Source of the DNA: an uncultured archaeon | Lineage (GTDB): Archaea; Asgardarchaeota; Thorarchaeia; Thorarchaeales; Thorarchaeaceae | DNA length: 11,873 nt | Assembly (NCBI GenBank): GCA_964458565.1 | Contig: CAYWJO010000070.1 | Location: 1-11,873 of the forward strand | Reading direction: 5' to 3' | Part shown: positions 1 through 10,657 of the stretch, one piece after another | How positions within the stretch are numbered: the first letter of the stretch is position 1 | Layout of the letters: each line of letters opens with the position of its first letter | Made by a program: the position numbers and the translations under genes | The notes under the pieces: generated by a model | What the model saw: the letters and a program-made list of their open reading frames with translations, nothing else | Database searches by the model: none | What the model was told of the DNA's origin: nothing

Positions 1-53
1 AATGATTTGTATATCGTTTTTGGCTAAGGTCCTCCTTCACGACTCTGATGATG

Positions 54-935
54 CTATATATGGCAGAACTCTTCAAACAGAGCTGCTCTTGTCCAGGGCC
101 AGCCCCATTTGCTAACAGAATCCATAATTTCGTTTTTACTAGGTATGGTGACAGATCCTAGACCTGTCGATCCTGTCTCAATATACCAATCCAACTCCTC
201 CAGATAGAAAGTATGGTAGAGCCCACTCTCGAAGAGGGTTTTCCAGTTAAACCCTATCCTGACCAAATTAAGAATCTCTTCTCGGACTCTTTGACTGGAT
301 AACAGGCCATCACTAAATAGAATGTCTAAGAGCGTGTTACCTACCAACGATTCTGAACCTTTAGCATAGCTTTCCTCGATGTTTGGAATAGCGGCAGCAA
401 TGCTCTCCTGCATTATCTCTGTACTCATGAGTTTTGGGCATCTTTCAAAAAGGAAAGGAAGATAATAATGAAATTTCTGTTCGTATGTGATTATGCCTGC
501 TATGATATCAGCGTGGGGTGCTAAAATCTCATCTACCTCATTGATGGCCTCTTGGTCAGTCAAAGACTCAAGCTTCTCTATGAACATAACAAATATTTCA
601 TCAAGCACGCCAAATTTATTCGCTAGTTCGATATCCCTAAATGTGAGATTACCAATTCTTTCGATTATATTTGTTAAACCGATCTGTAATAATTCATCAT
701 CATTAAGAGGGCCATGCCTCTCCAAAAACTCGGTAAGCACTTTATCTGCACATGATTCAAAAAGTTGAAAATAAGTTTGATCCTCTCTCCCTTGCAGAGA
801 TTGAATAAAATCAATTATGCGATCTGTTATGGTAGGCCGCTCCTGTTCTTGTCTAATTTGATCCATTACCCTTTGGAATTTATCATCCTGTTCTCGATTC
901 TCTTTCCCGTCTTCAGAACCCTCTTCTTCCCTCAT
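54..935 (-). CDS. Acidic, probably alpha-helical hypothetical protein (293 aa)
   Basis: Long ORF with ATG start 6 nt downstream of the RPA-like gene stop, so likely co-transcribed. No recognisable motif. Confidence 0.8.
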   Translation of the reverse strand: MREEEGSEDGKENREQDDKFQRVMDQIRQEQERPTITDRIIDFIQSLQGREDQTYFQLFESCADKVLTEFLERHGPLNDDELLQIGLTNIIERIGNLTFRDIELANKFGVLDEIFVMFIEKLESLTDQEAINEVDEILAPHADIIAGIITYEQKFHYYLPFLFERCPKLMSTEIMQESIAAAIPNIEESYAKGSESLVGNTLLDILFSDGLLSSQRVREEILNLVRIGFNWKTLFESGLYHTFYLEELDWYIETGSTGLGSVTIPSKNEIMDSVSKWGWPWTRAALFEEFCHI

Positions 936-941
936 GGTCAG

Positions 942-1694
942 TCACCGATACACAGTATCCTGTCGCGATAAGTCTTTCCAATCTTTTTCCGCACTCTGCT
1001 CGGGAACATACCTCCCAATCCTAACTTCCTCAATTACCCTCGCCTTCTGCAACGACAGGACCACCATGTTGATTTCAAGCCGTGAGTACTCACGAGCCTC
1101 AAAATATCCTGCAATATCCAAGATGGACACACCATCTCTCCCTGCATGTTCCCTGATGAACTCAAGAATCAGGTCAGTGAGAGGCAGTTCAAACTCCTCT
1201 TTCCTCGTCTGCGTATCCGGAAGTTCAGCTCTCTTGCGAATGATCTCATCAAGACTCGGATACCGCTTCATCTTCCCCGAAGAAGGCCACTCACCTCTTG
1301 CATGCAGGATTCCTCGTATCCTCTCATACAGGTGCAGCGTCAGCTCGTTCGGGTCCACAATCTCATTCACCATCTCAGCAGCCAGATAGACCTCTCCCTC
1401 ATATGACCTAATCTTTCCAATGACTCGAATGGGAGTGCGAATCCGGACATTGAACGCGATTCCCGTGTCGTACCCCCAAGCCTTCCCACGGATCACTCCC
1501 GTCCCATCATCGATGGTCATGCTGAGATACTTGTCCTCAAGGTGAAGCATGTCCATGAGAAAACCTACTATGACAACCCTTCGTAGCACTAGACCATGCG
1601 GTGAGAGGACAAAGGGTCCTGTGTCCTTCTTGAGTTCACCTTCGAGTACATCTGCAATGGTCACACGCGTAGCGACCAGTCTTTCAAAGGGCAA
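942..1694 (-). CDS. rpa32: Replication protein A, RPA32-like subunit (OB-fold ssDNA-binding domain plus probable C-terminal winged helix)
   Basis: OB-fold signature RRVVIVG...MTIDDGTGVIRGKAW...IRVIGKIRSYEGEVYL...IVDPNELTLHLYE typical of RPA32/RPA2. C-terminal ILEFIREH-GVSILDIA...LQKARVIEEVRIGRY resembles a wHTH. TTG start with AAGGTG RBS (1703-1708) 8 nt upstream. Confidence 0.88.
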   Translation of the reverse strand: MPFERLVATRVTIADVLEGELKKDTGPFVLSPHGLVLRRVVIVGFLMDMLHLEDKYLSMTIDDGTGVIRGKAWGYDTGIAFNVRIRTPIRVIGKIRSYEGEVYLAAEMVNEIVDPNELTLHLYERIRGILHARGEWPSSGKMKRYPSLDEIIRKRAELPDTQTRKEEFELPLTDLILEFIREHAGRDGVSILDIAGYFEAREYSRLEINMVVLSLQKARVIEEVRIGRYVPEQSAEKDWKDLSRQDTVYR

Positions 1695-1756
1695 CCGATA
1701 AACACCTTAGACTTGTGCACATCCGAACTGGTGGTGGGTCTGACGCGGGTTGCCTA
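1690..1756 (-). promoter_or_regulatory. Putative structured 5' leader of RPA mRNA (about 62 nt) whose 5' end can pair with the start codon
   Basis: Inverted repeat GGCAACC (1690-1696, includes the TTG) / GGTTGCC (1748-1754), inner AGAC/GTCT pairing and palindrome TGTGCACA (1714-1721). All are invariant in both repeat copies. Confidence 0.5.
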
Positions 1757-1779
1757 GAACAAACTAGAGTCGTGTTGGG

Positions 1780-1795
1780 TTGTTTTAAGCACCTA
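1780..1795 (-). promoter_or_regulatory. Candidate archaeal TATA box for RPA (CTTAAAA on minus strand, 1783-1789)
   Basis: Island of conservation between the repeat copies, about 27-33 nt upstream of where the high-identity block begins (1756). This fits archaeal TATA-to-TSS spacing. Confidence 0.55.
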
Positions 1796-1933
1796 CACTG
1801 TTTTTTCTGACAACTAGAATCAATCATAATCTTGCTCATAGTTGCTAATAGAACATATTTCTCGGAGAAAATAATAATAGCGTAGGTAGTGATGGATTAG
1901 AAAATAACGATTGAAAATTGAAGGCGTTGTCTA

Positions 1934-2809
1934 TTGGTGATAGTAACAGAAACAATCAATGGGATTGAAGTTGTTGGAACCTGGATGAACAGTGTTCTAG
2001 TTGAACACAAAACAAATACGATTCATTTCGATTTAGATTATCATTCTGACGATTCCAATAGTTACAATGCACTAGTGAGAGGTTGGTGTCCATTTTGTCG
2101 TCCAACAAAGGAACAAGTCGAAGATGGTTATGCAGCTCTTCGGTTACGAGTTTTCATTAAACACGGAGAACCTACTCTATACTGGGAACATCTTGCAAGA
2201 TATATGCCACGGGATTTAGATGGATGTGGAGAAATATTTCGTGTTCAGTCCATTGAGGAAAGAAATAGCAAAAGAGAGATGGTCAACTGCAGACACTGTT
2301 TTCATTTTAAAAGTCAGGCAGACATGGAGAAGCTCTACCCATCATTTAGTATGGAAGAATTTTGGGGAAAATACAAGTGGCAATATCATGTTACAAACAA
2401 ACCAAGCTATTGCCTTGCACGTAACTTTGCAGTAGATAGAGATACAGAATGGTTCATAGATTCCAAAATTGCGGATAGAGCCGGATTTGTGAATGGCACC
2501 CATCGTGGTGGTATCTCTCCACACTGTCATATGTATCGAGATATCAATGAATGGCAATACCCAACACAAGAACAGATAATTGAATGGTCTAGAAAGCTTG
2601 CTCATAAATCCAAGAAATTGCCAAAGAAAAAATCAGTAAAGAGGATGACGAGGACATGTTCATGTGGTAGAACCATGAGTATGGAGCGAATATTCTGCCC
2701 ATCATGCGGCAGAAGACTTGCTCGTTCTGGATTTAGAATTTGCGAAAAATGTGGTCAAAAAATGGATGCAGGAGACCAATTCTGTGGTAACTGTGGACAC
2801 AGAAAATAA
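1934..2809 (+). CDS. Cys/His-rich hypothetical protein with C-terminal double zinc ribbon (291 aa)
   Basis: C-terminal CSC..FCPSCG..CEKCG..FCGNCG (double zinc ribbon). Additional CPFC...H...C and CRHC...C...C clusters and a basic linker KKLPKKKSVKR. Start could be TTG 1934 or GTG 1937. Confidence 0.85.
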   Translation: MVIVTETINGIEVVGTWMNSVLVEHKTNTIHFDLDYHSDDSNSYNALVRGWCPFCRPTKEQVEDGYAALRLRVFIKHGEPTLYWEHLARYMPRDLDGCGEIFRVQSIEERNSKREMVNCRHCFHFKSQADMEKLYPSFSMEEFWGKYKWQYHVTNKPSYCLARNFAVDRDTEWFIDSKIADRAGFVNGTHRGGISPHCHMYRDINEWQYPTQEQIIEWSRKLAHKSKKLPKKKSVKRMTRTCSCGRTMSMERIFCPSCGRRLARSGFRICEKCGQKMDAGDQFCGNCGHRK

Positions 2810-2846
2810 TTATCACACGCGTAGCGACCAGTCTTTCAAAGGGCAA
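2733..2846 (-). pseudogene. Displaced 5' fragment of the RPA gene (MPFERLVATRV) reading on into a 37-aa chimeric ORF antisense to the zinc-ribbon gene end
   Basis: TTG at 2846 with intact AAGGTG RBS. Translation is MPFERLVATRVIIIFCVHSYHRIGLLHPFFDHIFRKF*, and the first 11 aa are identical to RPA. Confidence 0.7.
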
Positions 2847-2945
2847 CCGGTTAACACCTTAGACTTGTGCACATCCGAACAGCAGGTGGGTCTGACGCGG
2901 GTTGCCTAACAATACTGAGTATTATTAGATTGTTTTAAACACCTA
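2813..2945. repeat. Direct repeat copy 2 (orphan copy of RPA 5' end, leader and promoter)
   Basis: Begins 3 nt after the stop codon of 1934..2809. The first 37 nt are identical to 1661-1697. Offset is 1152 bp. Confidence 0.97.
2906..2945 (-). promoter_or_regulatory. TATA box (TTTAAAA, 2933-2939) plus 23-bp operator-like palindrome (2906-2928)
   Basis: CTAACAATACT-G-AGTATTATTAG has 10 of 11 symmetric pairs complementary. It lies between the TATA box and the inferred TSS. Confidence 0.5.
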
Positions 2946-3103: not shown

Positions 3104-4234
3104 TTGGAGAATGGGGAATTAATCCATGTAATGTTCAACAAAGGATACTATCTTCTTGAAATACTAGATGTAATCTATCCCAATGGATATTCCAATGAGA
3201 GTCTCAATGCAGTCCTTTCGTTTCTAGGTTTTCAAAACAGAAATGAGTACAAGGAAGCAAATTCTGAAATATATCAAATGATGTTGTCTGAAGCAAAAAG
3301 AGAAGCACAGAAATTCGAAAATGCTGAAATTTTAAATCAAATCAATGAAATCTTCAGTACAGAACTACCAAAATTAGATAAAATAAGACGGATTATATTT
3401 CCAGATTTATATGAAGTAAAGCGAGACAGGGTTGAGCGACTTTATAGAAAGAAAGTCATTGATTTCATTATATTGAAAGCTCTACAGTGTGATGACTGGG
3501 ATGAGTACAATCGATTAAGGAGAAACACAAGATTACGTATTAATTATCGCAGAAAAAAGGGAAGTGGATTCATTGATATTAAAGATTCAATTATTGAGAG
3601 AGATTGTAGTAAATGTGTAATCAGTGGAGAAGCTGAGTATTTGGAGATTCACCATATAGATGGGAATGATGAAAACAACGATCCCTCAAATCTTATCACC
3701 GTCACAAAAGAAGTACAACTAGCAATTCACAATGGAGCAAGAGGACTCACTGAAGATAGAATGAAATTTCATGAACAGCACAACCCAAGATATGCAAAAC
3801 TAGTAAAGAAACGACTTGAGTATCTGAAGAAGTATGTACAGTATCTAATGAAAATCGGACATGAAAATGTTTGTTTAGAAAGTATTCCTGCAGATATATT
3901 GTTTGGGATAAATCTGCACAGAACACTTCATATCAATGCTCGAGGAAAAAGAAGATCTGGATATTATTGGGTAGTAGTATTAAAACCAACAGGTTTTCAT
4001 GAGCAGCCTCATTTCACTCCCAAAGAAAGTAGGTATGACTATCTCAATGATGAGTATGGCGAGATAGAATTTGATGAAGACTTCCAATTTGGAGATACGA
4101 TGAAGACTGAAAAAGTGAAGACATGTCCAAAATGTGGAGGTCAGACACTCCGAGCTTATCTCACCCCGGGTGGTGAGTATTATGAATGTGATAAATGTAG
4201 AGATGAACAGGTAGCTAAGGAAAAAAGAACCTGA
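3104..4234 (+). CDS. HNH endonuclease domain protein with C-terminal zinc ribbon (376 aa; start may be ATG 3131)
   Basis: IIERDCSKCVISG..YLEIHHIDGNDENNDPSNLITV...AIH is an HNH motif. C-terminal CPKCGG...YYECDKC. AT-rich. Confidence 0.85.
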   Translation: MENGELIHVMFNKGYYLLEILDVIYPNGYSNESLNAVLSFLGFQNRNEYKEANSEIYQMMLSEAKREAQKFENAEILNQINEIFSTELPKLDKIRRIIFPDLYEVKRDRVERLYRKKVIDFIILKALQCDDWDEYNRLRRNTRLRINYRRKKGSGFIDIKDSIIERDCSKCVISGEAEYLEIHHIDGNDENNDPSNLITVTKEVQLAIHNGARGLTEDRMKFHEQHNPRYAKLVKKRLEYLKKYVQYLMKIGHENVCLESIPADILFGINLHRTLHINARGKRRSGYYWVVVLKPTGFHEQPHFTPKESRYDYLNDEYGEIEFDEDFQFGDTMKTEKVKTCPKCGGQTLRAYLTPGGEYYECDKCRDEQVAKEKRT

Positions 4235-4991: not shown

Positions 4992-5592
4992 GTAGTTTGC
5001 CCTCCTTTATCACATCAGGATGCTTACACGTCCGCCAGAACAGGTCATTCATATCAGGCTCTCGAATTCTCTCCACAGACATCGAAACATTTGATACGTA
5101 TTCGAAGAGAGCGAGCCCTCTTTTACTGTGTACCTCCTTTGCTATGAATGCCATAAAATGGATGTCTGAGAAGTCTGAAGAAATAACGCGAAGTGTCTGA
5201 ACAATCTCATCTTCATCCAGACCATGTGCAATTAGATCTGATGGCGACCACCAGAGCCACCACTTTATCTCTTTATGAGACTGCTTAAGCTTTCGAAGGC
5301 GACTCAAGAAACCCTGTATATCGGCTGGATTCTCAATATATCTCTCATCATCGGAATCAGAGATTCTCCGGCGTAAAGCAGTCTTTGCAGTCAGAGCATG
5401 TCCAGTTGCATCAACTAGTATTATTTCGTCATTCAACTCAAAGGAAATACCCTTTGAATGAACCAATGCCACTTTGGAATTATCTAGGGAGGATAGAATA
5501 CATTGTAAAACTCGATATTCTGTATCTGTTTCGAATGTTATGATACTAATTCCTTCTATGCACCAATCCCCTAGAAAAAATTGAGGTCCCAA
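4981..5592 (-). CDS. Hypothetical protein, probable inactivated KaiC/RecA-fold ATPase (203 aa)
   Basis: No Walker A. Colinear echoes of its neighbour: IILVDA vs IIIDA, LWWSPSDL vs LVIDPVSAL, FEYVSNVSMSVE vs ERYAAHGYIHLD, WRTCKHP vs LRIVKMR. TTG start 1 nt after the upstream stop. Confidence 0.7.
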   Translation of the reverse strand: MGPQFFLGDWCIEGISIITFETDTEYRVLQCILSSLDNSKVALVHSKGISFELNDEIILVDATGHALTAKTALRRRISDSDDERYIENPADIQGFLSRLRKLKQSHKEIKWWLWWSPSDLIAHGLDEDEIVQTLRVISSDFSDIHFMAFIAKEVHSKRGLALFEYVSNVSMSVERIREPDMNDLFWRTCKHPDVIKEGKLLGY

Positions 5593-5593
5593 T

Positions 5594-6133
5594 TCATTCG
5601 ACCCCCTTCAATGAGAGTTGTGTATACATGGGTACACCCTCAATGTCGATTATTTCAATCACCCGAATATCTTCTCTTGGCGCATTCTCTTCTCGATAGA
5701 GACTTTCAACTAGTATATCTCTATCAGATGTGAGAGTCACGCAATGAAGAACCCACTCGTCAACTGACTGTTTTGTGAGAAAGATGGATACTGGAGCATG
5801 ACCTACTCCATTTAGAAGAAATCTCTTGAGGGACTCAACTGTGATATCTAGGTCTTGTTTAAGCTTGTATTGAGTGGGATCTATACTAATCTGGACATGA
5901 ATGGGAATGCCAAAGATTACTGAAGATACTATTGGGATATACCCCTTAACTATGCTATCCTCCTCAAGAACTTGGATTCTTTGACGTGCTGCTTGTCTGG
6001 AAATGCGAAGGACATTACCCATCGTTGCGGGTGCACTCTTCACACACCCTCTTAGTGTGAGTATTGTTTCATTCTTAGTGTCTTTTACCTCTCCATTTTC
6101 TAATGTCCTAATCATCACTTTCACTACTTCCAT
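5594..6133 (-). CDS. Lrp/AsnC-family-like winged HTH transcriptional regulator (start possibly ATG 6115)
   Basis: DTKNETILTL...MGNVLRISRQAARQRIQVLEEDSIVKGYIPIVSSVIFG matches the Lrp/AsnC HTH-plus-linker pattern. Overlaps the upstream stop. Confidence 0.78.
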   Translation of the reverse strand: MEVVKVMIRTLENGEVKDTKNETILTLRGCVKSAPATMGNVLRISRQAARQRIQVLEEDSIVKGYIPIVSSVIFGIPIHVQISIDPTQYKLKQDLDITVESLKRFLLNGVGHAPVSIFLTKQSVDEWVLHCVTLTSDRDILVESLYREENAPREDIRVIEIIDIEGVPMYTQLSLKGVE

Positions 6134-9100
6134 CTAAATTTGAGATGTTGCGTTCTTTCTGTTTTCTTCGGCGCTCAGGTATCTTCTCCCGTTCTTCTTC
6201 CAGTGCCTTACTGATTTCTGGACTTACAGGTTTAGCAGTAGTTGTGGTGTTTCCTCTGAAGTACTTTCGACCTACAGCAACAAAGAGTGTTGAGAAGAAA
6301 ACACCTCCCAAGAGAAGGGTTAGTGGTAGATAGTCAGGTGGAAGCACGACATCAACATTACTCATTGATCCATAGTAATATTCGTTCTCACTGACTATAA
6401 TCTGAATTGGACCATCATCTGGAGCGACGAACAGTTGAACATAGCCTTCGCTGTTACTAACTTCAGTTCCAATAAGTTTGCCATCCTTTGTTCGATAGTA
6501 TTCTACAGGGATGTCCTCTATAGGAGTACCTTCGTCATCGGTTATGCATGCGAGAACATATCCCTGATCCATTGTAGTAGTATCTACATCGAGAATCAGG
6601 ATTTCTCTATCAATGATAAGATCCCCACGGACATAATCGGGGTTTTGATAATAGTACGACTCGGTCATTGGTGCAAGCATTCGCACATCGTATGTTCCAG
6701 TGGGTAGAGATGGAATCCATAAAATACTCACACATCCAGACTCATTGGATATTCCAGAGCCAATACTGATCCATCCACCATCCCATAGCTCAAGGTATAT
6801 GGAATATCCTGAAACAGGTTCACCATCGTCTGTAAGTAGATGTGCTGTCAGTATTCCTTGGTCACTGTACGTGAAGTTTCTTGCTGAATCCATAATTATC
6901 TGAGTTGTTTCCTTCTCTGAAGTGGTGTAGAAGTAACACTCGGTCCGTGCGTAATAGTCAGATAATGCAGTTTCTGTCTTTAGATAGATATCCCCTACTA
7001 TATTGCAAGTCCATTGGATACTACCCCATCCATAGGTATCAGTTCTTACAGTGTCAATGTAGATCCATGTTATATTGTCTTCAGAGGAATAGAAATGAAC
7101 ATCGAGTTCCAGTCCTTCATAGAATGATTCGTCATTTAGTGAATTCATCTGTAGATTACATGTTGTTAAATCACTGTATGTCATCGGGAACAATTGAATT
7201 TCGGTTGCAAGAACATGAACTATATCCATCGGGAACTTAACAATCAAATTTTCATATACATCGTCCCCATGGATTTCGAGTATCATATAGCATTCAAAAT
7301 CATCCTGAGTCAATCTACCATCGCCATCTAGGTCCCATTGTAGATTCCATGTAGAGATGTGTTCACCTTGCGTGATATTCCAGGTACCCAAGTGGTTTCT
7401 GGGTTCACCATATTCCGCATCCAATGTCCACCAAAGGTCGTAGGTAAGATCTATAGGATAGTCATGAATGTAGGTGACTGATTGATAGATACCTTGGAAA
7501 TCTGAGTCATATACATTGTATAGATGAAGTGATGACTCGGAAGCAGCAACCAGATAGGCTGGAAGCTCTGTGTTATATGTGATTTCTCGGGCATTTGCGA
7601 CAAGTCCAGAAACATAACCACTACATGGCTCATAATTATTGATTCCATCATAGCTCACTAGAATACTATAATCCCCAGCAACAAGAGGAGAGTAGGTGAG
7701 TGTTGTATTTGCAGATTCCCCACAATAGAGAGTATATTGTTCATCTTCAATTGATATGTTTACAGTACCTGATATTGCTCTACCTTGGCTATCACTCAAC
7801 CACATATCAATGACAAACGCTTGTGGATCGTATTCTGTGCTAACAAGAACAGTGTCTACAATAGGTATAAGATTCAGGATTGTATCTTCCTTTACCCACT
7901 CTGCATAAGTTGCATCGTTCTCTGATATCGTATCAATACCCAGAATTCCTCCAAACACCATATCAACTGTATAACCATGTCTGCATTTGATGTGATGGAC
8001 AAAAGTACTGTAATTAAGAATGCAAGTACCATCAAAGCGGCACAAATCATATTCATAATAGGCAATCACTCGGATACCTGATGCATTCTCTCCCAGTTTC
8101 AATGTGTGAGTATAGGGATCCGTGATGGTTATGATTATCGAATCCCAAATACACCATGTCGAGTCGTCAGTCATTACGAATGTTATTTCATAAGTATCAT
8201 CGCCAAGTACTTCCACAGAATATCCATGTTTTCCTGATTCACTATATGCAAAGCAGGTATCATTCAAGAGAGCTGTGCCATCATAAAGTTCTCCTGAATA
8301 GGCATAAGTGACAGAATAAGAGATCCCCGATGCATTCTCGCCTATGTTGATTCGTTGAATGGGAGTGTCAGTGAAGTTGATTATTAGACCATCCCATATT
8401 ATTGTACAGGGCTGCATGTTCTGATTAACAGAGGTGATACCAATAGGATTGTATTCAATCTCTAAATGGTCAAAAGTCAAAGAGCCAACATCATTCAAGA
8501 TTACATCAGAGCTCTGCCAGATTCCAGATGAACCGGAGTATGTCAACTCGTATCCACTTAGATTGATAGTGCCAGTCGTAAACCAACTACCAGCTTCCTC
8601 ATATTGGAGCTGAACCTGCAGATAGGTAGGGTTTCCGACATTCACATGACTATCGATTACTTCAATTGAGCTGATTAATACATTATCCCAGATGACAGTC
8701 ACTTCAGGGTCAGTTGTGACTAGAGTGACTCCTTCAGGTGTATTCACACTGATGCTGTCAAAGATTTTCGTGGAAGGTAGAGGGTTACCAAGTAAATCAG
8801 TATCTGTAGAAACATCTGCTTCCCATCGCGCATTTCCTAGATTATAAGTCATTGACACGCCCTCCCATGAGAGTGTACCAGTGGTGATTTCTGCATTATC
8901 TGAATAATATTGAAGCTGTGTGTAGATTGTTACAGTATCTTCTATATCAACCCAGTCTGCTGTAACACCGTAATCAGTTGCAATAACAGAATCAACAGTA
9001 GTCTCAAGTTTTTCCGTGGTGAGTAAGACAGAACCACCAAAGCTATCTGTTGCAATCTCTACTTGAAATCGATTGAGTGTTCCGATTGACCCAGCTGTTG

Positions 9101-10370
9101 GGCAAGTGAACTGCAATTCTCCATTATCCAGAAGCTCGTAGTCGTTCCAGACTGGTGAGATAGGTAAGGTTCTATCAACTCGAGCATAGATTCCTCCAGC
9201 ACGTACGCCAGATGTTGATGAAGCATATTTCACAATACCTTCAACAACAATACTAGAACCTGGATCACATCGCTCCTGTGTATATGATGTAAAAGACTCC
9301 CAGGCAAGTTGTGTATGAATATCTACATCCCAATCCAATTCATCCTTCCAAATTATATCGGATGTGAATATATCAGAATCTGTAGATGAGGTTGCGATGA
9401 CTCTCCAATCCACATTGTTCTCTTCTGGATGGAAATATGTGATTCGGACTGCAAACCAAACAGATCGTGAAGATGGTTGTGTGTTTACTTGACATTCAGA
9501 TGGAACTATTTCAATCCAAGAGTTATCAGGGGATTCATCATTCGCACTGAACTCCAAGTCATCCATTATCACAGACCAAAGTTTGTTTCCATTTGATTCC
9601 TTCAAGCATTGGAGTTCTATTCTTGTTATTGTACTACCACCATCAGAATCATATGCTCCACAACGGAATTTGTAAAAATCAGAACCAAGTTGTCCTTTAC
9701 CTGCATAGAGGTTGTCATTATCATAAAGAGCTGATACTTCGATGAATTGATTCACGAACGTATATGTATCGGAGAAACGCAACCTGATATAATCAAACAG
9801 CCATACACTATGTGAACCATCTCCTGCTGATTCCCAACTGTCCTTGACTCTAAGATAGATTGAGTCATGCCCTTGTACATCAATAGGCCAAGATTTCTGA
9901 ACTGATGATGTTTCATCTATTTCGAGAGTTCCGAGCAATGTATCTGTAGTAGTATCTGATAGTCCCCAGTAGAATTCGAGTGGTTCGGGACTGTAATCGC
10001 AATACCCCTCAATCTGTATCTCATAATTTTGGTATGTAGACCATGAATCACAAGGAATAATGAATGTATATTCAAACCGTTTTGACAGAATGACTGTTGC
10101 TTCACTTAATGATGCATACGATCCATCATCACTCTGCAGGTTCGTTAGACTAAAGCCGGATTGACCACTATACTTACCATCAATATATCCATACAGCCAA
10201 GAGGATACTTGACTAACATAAGAAAACTCCTCAACTTCGCTTAATTTTGAAGCTGGTTGAACAATGGATGGTGACTTGTCACTTTCAGAGGAGAGGTTTC
10301 CTGTTGAGATGAGGAGTGGTAAAAATAAGACTGATACAAACAGGAGAATCATTATTTTCTTTGTCTTCAT
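6108..10370 (-). CDS. Large secreted, C-terminally membrane-anchored surface protein with tandem Ig-like/beta-rich repeats (about 1,420 aa)
   Basis: ORF track gives 6108..10382 (GTG). ATG at 10370 has GAGGTG 9 nt upstream and gives the signal peptide MKTKKIMILLFVSVLFLPLLI. Acidic and S/T/D/Y-rich, with internal repeats. TM helix YLPLTLLLGGVFFSTLFVAVG is followed by a charged tail of about 50 aa. Confidence 0.9.
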   Translation of the reverse strand: MKTKKIMILLFVSVLFLPLLISTGNLSSESDKSPSIVQPASKLSEVEEFSYVSQVSSWLYGYIDGKYSGQSGFSLTNLQSDDGSYASLSEATVILSKRFEYTFIIPCDSWSTYQNYEIQIEGYCDYSPEPLEFYWGLSDTTTDTLLGTLEIDETSSVQKSWPIDVQGHDSIYLRVKDSWESAGDGSHSVWLFDYIRLRFSDTYTFVNQFIEVSALYDNDNLYAGKGQLGSDFYKFRCGAYDSDGGSTITRIELQCLKESNGNKLWSVIMDDLEFSANDESPDNSWIEIVPSECQVNTQPSSRSVWFAVRITYFHPEENNVDWRVIATSSTDSDIFTSDIIWKDELDWDVDIHTQLAWESFTSYTQERCDPGSSIVVEGIVKYASSTSGVRAGGIYARVDRTLPISPVWNDYELLDNGELQFTCPTAGSIGTLNRFQVEIATDSFGGSVLLTTEKLETTVDSVIATDYGVTADWVDIEDTVTIYTQLQYYSDNAEITTGTLSWEGVSMTYNLGNARWEADVSTDTDLLGNPLPSTKIFDSISVNTPEGVTLVTTDPEVTVIWDNVLISSIEVIDSHVNVGNPTYLQVQLQYEEAGSWFTTGTINLSGYELTYSGSSGIWQSSDVILNDVGSLTFDHLEIEYNPIGITSVNQNMQPCTIIWDGLIINFTDTPIQRINIGENASGISYSVTYAYSGELYDGTALLNDTCFAYSESGKHGYSVEVLGDDTYEITFVMTDDSTWCIWDSIIITITDPYTHTLKLGENASGIRVIAYYEYDLCRFDGTCILNYSTFVHHIKCRHGYTVDMVFGGILGIDTISENDATYAEWVKEDTILNLIPIVDTVLVSTEYDPQAFVIDMWLSDSQGRAISGTVNISIEDEQYTLYCGESANTTLTYSPLVAGDYSILVSYDGINNYEPCSGYVSGLVANAREITYNTELPAYLVAASESSLHLYNVYDSDFQGIYQSVTYIHDYPIDLTYDLWWTLDAEYGEPRNHLGTWNITQGEHISTWNLQWDLDGDGRLTQDDFECYMILEIHGDDVYENLIVKFPMDIVHVLATEIQLFPMTYSDLTTCNLQMNSLNDESFYEGLELDVHFYSSEDNITWIYIDTVRTDTYGWGSIQWTCNIVGDIYLKTETALSDYYARTECYFYTTSEKETTQIIMDSARNFTYSDQGILTAHLLTDDGEPVSGYSIYLELWDGGWISIGSGISNESGCVSILWIPSLPTGTYDVRMLAPMTESYYYQNPDYVRGDLIIDREILILDVDTTTMDQGYVLACITDDEGTPIEDIPVEYYRTKDGKLIGTEVSNSEGYVQLFVAPDDGPIQIIVSENEYYYGSMSNVDVVLPPDYLPLTLLLGGVFFSTLFVAVGRKYFRGNTTTTAKPVSPEISKALEEEREKIPERRRKQKERNISNLDGSSESDD

Positions 10371-10657
10371 CTGCACATACACCTCGCTAGACTATCGCCA
10401 CCTATGGTACGGTCTCTACTTGATGTGATGTCATCCTGATGCCTAATGTACTCCACTGGAACCCCTAGTATCAACATACAGAATGTGCTCTCCTACTATA
10501 ATCATATTTCACACTCTATTTTGGATTTATGAAAAACAAGAATTGAACCAAATATTCCTTTTCTGAGTAGAAAAAGGACTATAAACGCTCCCCCGCGAGT
10601 TAATAGACATAATAAATTAAATCCACATCATTTTAGCAATTAAATGTAAGAAATCAC

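Follow-up and report, generated by a model that had tools for sequence, protein, structure and literature searches.

The locus lies in the genome of an uncultured Thorarchaeota (Asgard) archaeon, available as a metagenome-assembled genome (MAG) of 3.73 Mb that is 93% complete with 5% contamination. We analysed one stretch of 11,873 nucleotides (the window) from contig C70 of this MAG. The tetranucleotide use of the contig matches that of its own genome (r = 0.97) and no viral hallmark genes were found on it, and a viral or contaminant origin was set aside on these grounds. The features of the locus are as follows, with promoter elements and the transcription start predicted from motif and spacing.

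942–1694, minus strand: RPA32-like gene of 250 aa, TTG start at 1694, with an OB fold and a C-terminal region
1661–1795, minus strand: copy 1, the head of the RPA32-like gene in use (from alignment and sequence)
1662–1694, minus strand: codons 1–11 of copy 1
1703–1708, minus strand: ribosome-binding motif AAGGTG of copy 1, 8 nt upstream of the start
To about 1756, minus strand: leader of copy 1, up to the putative transcription start
1757–1779, minus strand: spacer of copy 1, putative transcription start to TATA box
1780–1795, minus strand: putative TATA/BRE block of copy 1, TAGGTGCTTAAAACA
1796–1933, plus strand: left end of the insert, AT-rich and non-coding, located upstream of ORF291
1934–2809, plus strand: ORF291, with an orphan, cysteine-rich N-terminal domain and, at the C-terminus, a double zinc ribbon (Pfam)
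2733–2846, minus strand: predicted stub frame in which 11 RPA codons are followed by 26 antisense to ORF291 and a stop codon
2813–2945, minus strand: copy 2, a displaced head sharing promoter block, leader and 11 codons with copy 1 (from alignment)
3104–4234, plus strand: endonuclease gene of the HNH_3 type, encoding a C-terminal zinc ribbon (Pfam HNH_3, E 1.3e-6, above cut-off)

A gene head present twice around a single gene

The repeat search returned 1656–1756 and 2808–2908 at 93% identity with a spacing of 1152, followed by 1758–1795 and 2908–2945 at 74%. Alignment and counting place the beginning of true identity at 1661/2813, from where 91 of 96 nucleotides agree through 1756/2908; beyond this point copy 2 has a 2-nt deletion, after which 27 of 37 positions are identical up to 1795/2945. 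The repeat is direct, 133–135 nt long, and runs from the TATA/BRE block to codon 11 of the RPA32-like gene. An exact block of 37 nt lies at its inner edge, and identity drops with distance from that edge. Outside the repeat, identity is at chance level both on the left (35%) and on the right (12.5%), where the non-coding left end of the insert and the DNA to the right of copy 2 have no similarity.

ORF291 is the only gene enclosed by the two copies, and copy 2 begins 3 nt past its stop codon (TAA, 2807–2809). A first-pass annotation of this DNA had described a 96-bp repeat (91/96) duplicating RPA codons 1–11, ribosome-binding site and leader, with weaker similarity through the promoter, bracketing exactly one gene and with copy 2 starting 3 nt after that gene's stop; the alignment bears this description out. 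Copy 2 is now fused to the antisense strand of the 3′ end of ORF291. Copy 1 has a GC content of 54%, the interior of the cassette one of 38%, and copy 2 forms a 55% GC islet amid DNA of 38% and 30% GC.

Differences between the copies are unevenly placed: 0 of 33 positions in the codons, 5 of 62 in the leader, 9 of 21 plus the 2-nt indel in the TATA-to-start spacer, and 1 of 16 in the TATA/BRE block. Comparison of the spacer with the rest of the repeat gave a Fisher p of 3e-5, for a promoter partition drawn after the differences had been seen. Since a dead duplicate in decay would be expected to differ evenly along its length, the clustering in the spacer fits two heads that diverged while working, and each copy was probably once a working head. 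Between long-separated heads a few synonymous differences would also be expected; the 11 codons contain none, and we therefore invoke a crossover or conversion tract over them. The perfect 37 nt at the inner edge, with identity declining away from it, fits what such a tract beside a break would leave.

A layout of this kind might in principle be made by the assembler, through strain mixing or by threading a free 1.15-kb circle into the chromosome at the shared 37-mer. The MAG is drawn from a metagenome and carries 5% contamination, and a Logan contig (SRR9710542; window 1787–2842) ends exactly at shared k-mers. That same contig, however, contains the ORF291-to-copy-2 junction, and two JGI contigs from separate samples match the window at 100% identity, one (3300031585; window 14–2009) running from the RPA body through copy 1 to the cassette left end and the other (3300031652; window 845–1807) carrying RPA body, copy 1 and cassette left end. 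Both have all the copy-1-specific variants and so tie the RPA body to the cassette. Proteins identical to ORF291 and to the HNH protein are each recorded on a 6,037-bp JGI contig, probably one and the same. As all three junctions are present in assemblies besides the MAG contig, we conclude that the locus is no misassembly, and the 15 differing positions and the indel between the copies mean that it is no collapsed repeat. An assembly artefact is thus very improbable, and the strain-mixing misassembly that the first-pass annotation had named as a possible refutation is countered by the independent JGI and Logan assemblies.

The target gene, its insert and its neighbour

Sequence searches of the PDB with the RPA32-like protein matched Pyrococcus abyssi RPA32 (8aas_B, E 7.7e-11), yeast Rfa2 (6i52_B, E 9e-8) and human RPA32 (E 0.03–0.08), while the Pfam OB-fold match falls below the cut-off. 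Homologues occur in 37 of the 40 relatives searched. Judged by this OB-fold homology, the target gene belongs to the RPA32/Rfa2 family. Its TTG start at 1694 is backed by homology, as the proteins of relatives open with M-x-E-R-[ML]-T-A-[IV]-R, aligned to residues 1–11; the JGI gene calls take codon 11, a GTG, as the start (240 aa) and drop these conserved residues. Two further RPA32-like paralogues are encoded in the genome (contigs C25 and C46, 33–35% identity), and the target, the third, is the longest branch in the family tree. Its GC content is 50.3% and its GC3 0.55 against a genome mean of 0.35, rank 5 among 2,623 ORFs. The target is a compositionally foreign, long-branch accessory paralogue and not a core replication gene, and the earlier label ‘replication gene’ was in this respect overstated.

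The composition of ORF291, by comparison, is genome-like (GC 39.4%, GC3 0.31). Its Pfam matches (DZR, Zn_ribbon_3 and Zn_Ribbon_1) lie at residues 243–290. Among 1.84 billion representatives a single homologue was found (P0004; 26% identical across the full length, with E 2e-27 in a pairwise comparison), relative to which the C-terminus of ORF291 is complete; the contig of this homologue has no flanking repeats, no RPA gene nearby and no shared neighbours. Pfam, PHROGs, NCBIfam and PADLOC returned zinc ribbons and a sub-threshold DUF7449 only, profile searches of the PDB zinc ribbons only, and the ESM Atlas nothing above noise. The AF2 model has a pLDDT of 50 and was unusable. Profile searches gave no nuclease or recombinase signature, and an hhalign comparison with the neighbouring HNH protein matched within the zinc ribbon only. 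The order of conserved residues in ORF291 (CxxC, WEH, EERN, CxxCxH) recalls zinc-stabilised HNH folds, without profile support. As the profiles give zinc ribbons alone, we stop short of calling ORF291 a nuclease.

The HNH gene lies outside the repeats, with 158 nt separating it from the right end of copy 2, and has a GC content of 35%. It matches PHROG HNH endonuclease families, and a homologue of its protein (P0008, 39% identity) adjoins another small HNH_3 ORF.

Mobility and related loci in the lineage

No integrase was found on the contig, whether within the cassette or outside it, in keeping with the first-pass description of the cassette as integrase-less. That annotation had also proposed searching the contig for a tyrosine recombinase; the only one in the MAG is a weak XerA-like match on contig C53 (38.9 bits against a cut-off of 220), and the 93%-complete MAG contains no serine recombinase. 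A further suggestion was to compare the repeat with the whole genome and with relatives. Sensitive blastn of the whole 3.73-Mb MAG recovered the two copies only, with no third or degenerate copy of either head and no older head copy beyond the HNH gene, and in 19 relatives the RPA32 orthologues had no repeats around them. Protein queries and a wobble-degenerate DNA pattern revealed no empty or alternative allele and no other cargo in 40 relatives, GTDB representatives, IMG/VR and JGI metagenomes, collections from which same-genus relatives are absent. The locus was recovered from one population only, in the occupied state in four metagenome assemblies.

Recombination between the copies had been predicted to release a 1152-bp circle and leave an intact RPA gene. 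The geometry would allow this, but no free form of the cassette was found in the collections searched. The searches gave no support to an element mobilised in trans, with no further copies, no empty alleles and the one weak XerA-like recombinase. The locus is a real insertion-type scar in which the target gene stays whole, and nothing shows that the cassette is still mobile, now or in trans.

Several known classes of insert were considered and rejected. An integron gene cassette would not match, as there is no inverted repeat at the cassette ends and no IntI-type integrase nearby, and the boundary repeat is a copy of a gene head. Nor are there the terminal inverted repeats or transposase domain of a transposon or insertion sequence, and the duplication is 133–135 bp long. 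A tRNA or structured-RNA origin of the repeat was discarded because ARAGORN found no tRNA, Rfam had no match in the region and the leader folds have z values of about 0.

The same genome (contig C35) and five other Thorarchaeota MAGs carry a uS19 gene whose tail is repeated behind one-gene cassettes of 0.7–2.2 kb. In the three cleanest tail copies (L065, L068) all differences fall at third codon positions (13/13, 9/9 and 10/10), with no amino-acid change; in the remaining copies 12–13 of 16–17 differences do so, with 1–4 amino-acid changes. Because the differences are mostly synonymous, these displaced tails clearly come from other lineages. In the population of this genome, the uS19 cassette site is in the occupied state in 4 of 4 assemblies. 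Like the RPA locus, the uS19 cassettes are in this same genome, show a cast-off, once-working gene end and have no integrase; they differ in that they involve tails and recur across genomes, whereas the RPA case, known from one population, concerns one head including the promoter, and the gene is an accessory one.

A separate 56-nt leader repeat, head-like in appearance, was noted on contig C88 upstream of two genes, where the surrounding genes are LRR paralogues; it may simply be a shared promoter.

Origin of the layout and comparison with known systems

We propose, with about even confidence, that the locus is the fixed scar of a gene-head replacement by incoming DNA. The incoming DNA would have brought ORF291 together with its own diverged working RPA32-like head (promoter, leader and 11 codons) and recombined with the resident head at or beside codon 11/12. 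The RPA body would thereby have been joined to copy 1, keeping the gene intact, and copy 2 displaced by 1.15 kb, so that it now points into the back of ORF291. We think that homologous recombination or double-strand-break repair made the join; a small circle could have integrated by a Campbell-type single crossover, or WHO-like homing could have displaced the old gene end. A dedicated integrase we think less likely than these. The HNH gene may have arrived earlier as the cargo of such a unit, made up of head 2 and HNH, or may have supplied the break.

Several observations argue for this proposal. The repeat appears to be exactly the functional 5′ unit of the gene and to bracket one intact gene, with the C-terminus of ORF291 complete. 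The differences between the copies follow the putative promoter anatomy, and identity is highest at the inner edge. The uS19 tails of this lineage show a matching architecture with a clear donor origin, to which the RPA locus would be the 5′ counterpart. The contig carries no integrase, and of recombinases the MAG has one weak XerA-like tyrosine type and no serine type. The junctions recur in independent assemblies. A low-GC HNH_3 gene lies directly outside the displaced head, and WHO elements build the same layout (PMC7282813), which by analogy may point the same way. As one allele is known and no empty site, alternative cargo, donor or circle was found, we infer the direction of the event (insertion) and any mobility, as we do the foreign origin of one head, the route of recombination and any role of the HNH gene.

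Less likely, though the most credible of the other accounts, is that a break in the RPA 5′ region, staggered or resected, took up the DNA of ORF291, both copies being fill-in of resident sequence that diverged afterwards. Long target duplications of variable size (46 to about 420 bp), flanking inserts that lack a mobility gene and with identities down to about 93%, are documented in bacteria (PMC2853133), no recombinase lies at the locus, and the two copies have their unusual GC content of 54–55% in common. A non-functional copy should, however, decay evenly, and the differences cluster in the promoter spacer; the outer edge at the TATA/BRE block and the inner edge at a coding position delimit a functional unit rather than an arbitrary stagger; and the displaced uS19 tails of the same lineage came from elsewhere. 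The idea that the cassette represents a minimal integrative element with flanking att sites, or what is left of a larger one, acted on in trans by a site-specific tyrosine recombinase with crossover at a 7-7-7 dyad (1658–1678), seems improbable to us. The identity block does start 4 nt from the spacer of this 6/7 dyad at the inner edge and extends to the functional gene end, as in target-restoring elements (PMC2791158, PMC6563490), and the MAG does encode one tyrosine recombinase. Yet this enzyme is the weak XerA-like match on another contig, no second cassette or att sequence was found anywhere searched, no empty site is present in the four metagenome assemblies of the population, and the cargo homologue is without repeats. 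By a base-probability estimate, moreover, such a dyad would fall within about 10 nt of the edge by chance in ~3–8% of cases, and if the cassette descended from a larger element, a deletion must have stopped precisely at the stop codon of the cargo.

A regulatory explanation, in which copy 2 persists because it serves as an additional RPA-type promoter and leader for an antisense RNA across ORF291, or as a decoy for RPA autoregulation, is more improbable still. Copy 2 conserves 15 of 16 TATA/BRE and 57 of 62 leader positions and is directed into the 3′ end of ORF291, as such a function would want, but the folds predicted for the leaders show no advantage over shuffled sequence (z = -0.26 and -0.12), no Rfam family matches the leader, and the origin of the layout would be left unexplained.

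If 5′ gene-end replacement is the correct explanation, such cassettes would add genes to Asgard genomes and at the same time rewire the promoter of the target, a way of changing regulation that has not been described in archaea, and would extend the seemingly widespread integrase-free tail cassettes of Thorarchaeota (uS19) to gene heads. The broader notion that Thorarchaeota possess a general integrase-free docking of single genes at resident gene ends, heads as well as tails, through break-induced or homology-driven replacement of the end, with ORF291 or the HNH protein as the nuclease opening the site and with promoter and leader being swapped at each arrival, we consider improbable. On the present evidence there is one fixed example at an accessory gene, of value as a pointer and a test substrate rather than as proof.

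Among known systems, SXT likewise targets the 5′ end of a protein gene (prfC), which is functional after integration (PMC2791158). SXT, however, is ~100 kb long, with its own tyrosine integrase and Xis and nearly identical short attP and attB sites (PMC2791158), whereas the RPA insert has one gene and no integrase, and its 133–135-bp repeat takes in a whole promoter. CIMEs, islets flanked by att sites but lacking an integrase, and archaeal elements in the 3′-distal parts of protein genes also have direct repeats of a gene end that bracket foreign DNA and leave the host gene whole; they stem from or depend on integrase-bearing elements at the same att site, of which none was found here (PMC6563490). 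In Thaumarchaeota, the protein-gene targets are 3′-distal (14 of 68 sites), and the accessible part of that survey describes none of the 68 as 5′ (PMC6563490). Inserts with long target duplications are known for bacterial restriction-modification genes, no archaeal case having survived the survey (Furuta 2010, PMC2853133; also Nobusato 2000). The RPA insert has the properties by which that survey defined them (insert below 20 kb, direct repeat above 30 bp, no mobility gene), being 1,017 bp long between repeats of 133–135 bp, and its repeat length and identity fall in the range known for such inserts, whose repeats greatly exceed the target duplications of transposons; but there the repeats are copies of one target, whereas the differences here suggest two separately evolved heads.

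In the yeasts Torulaspora and Lachancea, WHO elements at FBA1 rely on the repair of a break made by an endonuclease to replace the 3′ end of the host gene with a working copy of their own (Coughlan et al. 2020, PMC7282813). Each arrival pushes the prior gene end and older cargo outward, with no integrase (PMC7282813). WHO elements act at a 3′ end and enclose the endonuclease gene itself, whereas here a 5′ end and promoter are involved, the HNH gene lies outside the repeat and ORF291 has no nuclease signature; they are eukaryotic, with cleavage and sensitive and resistant alleles, whereas the archaeal locus is one allele read from sequence. In order, the two nevertheless correspond: gene, new end, cargo, old end and older endonuclease in WHO clusters (PMC7282813), and RPA body, head 1, ORF291, head 2 and HNH gene here. 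The RPA locus thus appears to have what marks a WHO-like arrangement, a working gene end beside the cargo and, beyond it, a putative displaced older end.

A repeated RPA32-like gene head around ORF291

Repeat search located a direct repeat at 1656–1756 and 2808–2908 (93% identity), continued at 1758–1795 and 2908–2945 (74%), and alignment of the copies places the start of true identity at 1661/2813. The repeat opens with a 37-nt exact block and is identical at 91 of 96 positions in its first stretch; copy 2 then carries a 2-nt deletion, followed by 27/37 identity to 1795/2945. Just beyond the edges, identity drops to what chance would give (35% and 12.5%). In minus-strand orientation, the repeat takes in a TAGGTGYTTAAAACA block (TATA box with BRE-like flank), a leader of ~60 nt, AAGGTG 8 nt upstream of the start, and codons 1–11 of an RPA32-like gene, in this order. 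Copy 2 begins 3 nt past the TAA of ORF291. The first-pass annotation had described this repeat and the gene it brackets, and its account is accurate in every detail.

Genes and repeat copies on contig C70 (11,873 bp, all of it the window)
54–935, minus strand: orphan protein, 293 aa
942–1694, minus strand: RPA32-like gene
1661–1795, minus strand: copy 1, the working head of the RPA32-like gene
1934–2809, plus strand: ORF291
2813–2945, minus strand: copy 2, the displaced head
3104–4234, plus strand: HNH_3 endonuclease with zinc ribbon
6108–10382: surface protein, 1,424 aa
On C70: KaiC-like ATPase module
On C70: orphan protein, 332 aa

The TTG at 1694 is the start codon: both paralogues and the orthologues of 19 relatives open with M-x-(x)-E/K-R-[MLI]-[TV]-A-[IVT]-R, a stretch that aligns to residues 1–11 of this protein. 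JGI's automatic annotation takes the GTG of codon 11 as the start (240 aa) and loses these conserved residues, thus hiding the reach of the repeat into the coding region.

The target is an RPA32/Rfa2 homologue (match to P. abyssi RPA32, E 7.7e-11) and one of three such paralogues in its genome (MAG G000; 3.73 Mb in 93 contigs, 93% complete, 5% contamination); of 24 family relatives searched, by contrast, 22 gave one match only. Its branch is by far the longest in the tree of the family, at 3.1 substitutions per site (median 0.5). Its composition is foreign, with 50% GC and a GC3 of 0.55 (genome mean 0.346, sd 0.044), the fifth highest among 2,623 long ORFs. The view that a replication gene had been targeted therefore needs revision, as this is a long-branch third paralogue of foreign composition and not a core replication gene. 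Both repeat copies share its composition (54–55% GC), ORF291 looks native (39% GC, GC3 0.31) and the HNH gene is AT-rich (35% GC, GC3 0.28); these differences make the locus a mosaic in an accessory region. In tetranucleotide use, C70 agrees with the remaining genome (r = 0.97). For the N-terminal ~400 residues of the surface protein, there is a copy at 63% identity in C7:29980–31166, recovered as two tblastn pieces 2 nt apart, which may reflect a frameshift.

ORF291 combines an orphan cysteine-rich domain at its N-terminus with a double zinc ribbon at its C-terminus. Against 5.8 billion clustered proteins it matched its own cluster alone, and a HMMER search of 1.84 billion representatives returned one other protein, P0004, full-length at 26% identity. 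This match indicates that ORF291 is a real gene, conserved over its full length with an intact C-terminus. P0004 lies among unrelated neighbours on a 4.1-kb JGI contig that has no RPA gene, HNH gene or flanking repeats.

The arrangement recurs in independent assemblies. JGI assemblies from two different samples match 14–2009 (identical from position 62) and 845–1807 at 100% identity, both joining the RPA body, via every copy-1-specific base, to the left end of the cassette. A Logan contig (SRR9710542) is identical to 1787–2842 and stops exactly where it begins to share 31-mers with copy 1. These recurring junctions make an assembly artefact extremely improbable. A further contig spans 2969–4478 with two mismatches, and protein-cluster records place an identical ORF291 and an identical HNH protein each on a 6,037-bp JGI contig, probably the same one. 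JGI contig Ga0315534_1041261 follows the window except for its last ~45 bases (18–61), where each change is a swap to the complementary base (A/T or C/G); this looks like a fold-back artefact at the contig end.

Uneven divergence of the two heads

The copies differ by 15 substitutions and one indel, unevenly distributed.

Differences between copy 1 and copy 2 by segment
11 codons: 0/33
Leader: 5/62
Spacer, TATA box to inferred transcription start: 9/21, plus the 2-nt indel
TATA/BRE block: 1/16

The spacer departs from the rest of the repeat (Fisher p = 3e-5), as do core from distal differences (p = 0.001), on a partition drawn after the data were seen, with TATA box and transcription start placed by motif and spacing. 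A dead duplicate would decay evenly, and the pattern instead matches two working promoters. Judged from sequence, the displaced head was thus probably once the functioning head of another lineage or replicon, and the perfect 37 nt beside the inner edge look like a crossover or conversion tract.

Displaced gene tails in Thorarchaeota

Self-comparison of the genome revealed further short direct repeats 0.3–8 kb apart, two of which duplicate gene tails around accessory genes. On contig C35, the last ~26 codons and trailer of the uS19 gene (12032–12175) recur 3.2 kb and 6.5 kb downstream (15193–15275, 18643–18721), with a DUF7948/beta-propeller gene (961 aa) and then a pair of orphans bracketed between the copies; third codon positions account for 12 of the 16 differences in the first displaced tail. 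On C7, a 56-nt repeat (71–126 and 5501–5556, 96% identical) duplicates the terminal 15 codons of the gene for a cobalamin adenosyltransferase; between its copies lie a DUF7948/beta-propeller gene (990 aa) and one of transglutaminase-like type. The genome has three DUF7948/beta-propeller genes, the third on C64, and each lies inside a repeat-bracketed block.

The closest matches to uS19 all come from Candidatus Thorarchaeota MAGs (76–84% identity), which marks the organism as an Asgard archaeon of Thor type. In five other Thorarchaeota MAGs (loci L065, L068, L071, L073 and L078), one or two further copies of the uS19 tail lie behind cassettes of 0.7–2.2 kb, with one main gene per cassette at L065 and L068, where ORFs are listed. 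The displaced tails measure 77–95 nt and are 75–88% identical. In the three cleanest (L065, L068), every difference is third-position (13/13, 9/9, 10/10) with no amino-acid change; the remaining tails have 12–13 of 16–17 differences at third positions and 1–4 amino-acid changes. This bias argues that the displaced tails once worked elsewhere. The RPA locus shares this architecture, at a gene head. No homologues of C70 proteins were found at the five uS19 loci.

Other repeats in the genome are of less clear kind. On C88, a 56-nt segment of leader and start codon (515–570 and 2759–2814, 86% identical) precedes an LRR gene and again a 668-aa orphan with an LRR gene on either side; this could be another displaced head, or else a promoter common to paralogues. 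Three ~130-nt repeats at a contig end (C1:245903–255079), with C/D-box-like motifs (ATGATGA ... CTGA), are related in reverse to repeats ~5 kb apart on C64:1–15387, and this array may be where the two contigs meet. A 51-nt repeat on C45 (23–73 and 939–989, 916 nt apart) resembles a tRNA 3' half in reverse complement (GGCGCCCCCGCCGGGA-T-GAACCCGGG); ARAGORN calls no tRNA there, possibly owing to introns or contig-end truncation.

Possible origins and known parallels

Four routes yield such a scar: integrase-mediated insertion, Campbell-type crossover, endonuclease-triggered repair and long target duplication. The cassette had been proposed to be mobilised in trans as an att-like element. Its lack of an integrase is borne out, as domain searches of C70 found no integrase, transposase or resolvase. 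Present-day mobility finds no support, given the missing recombinase and the lack of further copies or empty alleles: the genome holds no third repeat copy, even degenerate, and no empty allele or free form emerged, although these searches carry little weight, there being no same-genus genome. Neither GTDB representatives nor IMG/VR yielded relatives of the target RPA or ORF291, or a wobble-degenerate match to the 11 codons, and no repeats lie near the RPA32 orthologues of 19 relatives. JGI metagenomes yielded the same population alone, occupied every time, and no other cargo. A 7-7-7 dyad at the inner edge (TGGTCAC / ACGCGTA / GCGACCA, 6/7 complementary, with an estimated chance expectation of a few per cent) is a hint of an att element and only that. 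Serine recombinases are absent from the genome, and its only tyrosine recombinase is a weak XerA-like match located on C53. We regard trans-mobilisation as distinctly unlikely.

Two features, the constraint-shaped divergence and the gradient of identity, speak for recombination with an incoming head that had diverged. Insertion with long target duplication (PMC2853133) is rather unlikely. Given the missing recombinase and the HNH gene just outside the displaced head, homology or break repair is favoured as the route, ahead of an integrase. We give roughly even chances to the joint reading, in which a diverged incoming head would have recombined with the resident RPA head by such a route, either as a single Campbell-type crossover with a circle that carried a homologous head or as endonuclease-triggered repair like that of yeast WHO elements. 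That the duplication persists for a regulatory reason is very doubtful. The evidence is a single allele of an accessory gene, and a general gene-docking process in Thorarchaeota, promoter swap included, seems unlikely.

SXT/R391 elements integrate at the 5' end of prfC and keep the gene working (PMC2791158). For archaea, integrated elements are reported from tRNA genes, from intergenic sites and from protein genes in their 3'-distal parts (PMC6563490). Yeast WHO elements replace the 3' end of FBA1 and displace the previous end outward, along with older endonuclease genes (PMC7282813); the HNH gene beyond the displaced head sits where an older WHO-type unit would. A one-gene, recombinase-less insert that duplicates a full promoter–leader–start unit in an archaeon is a variant of these known kinds, and not a new category.
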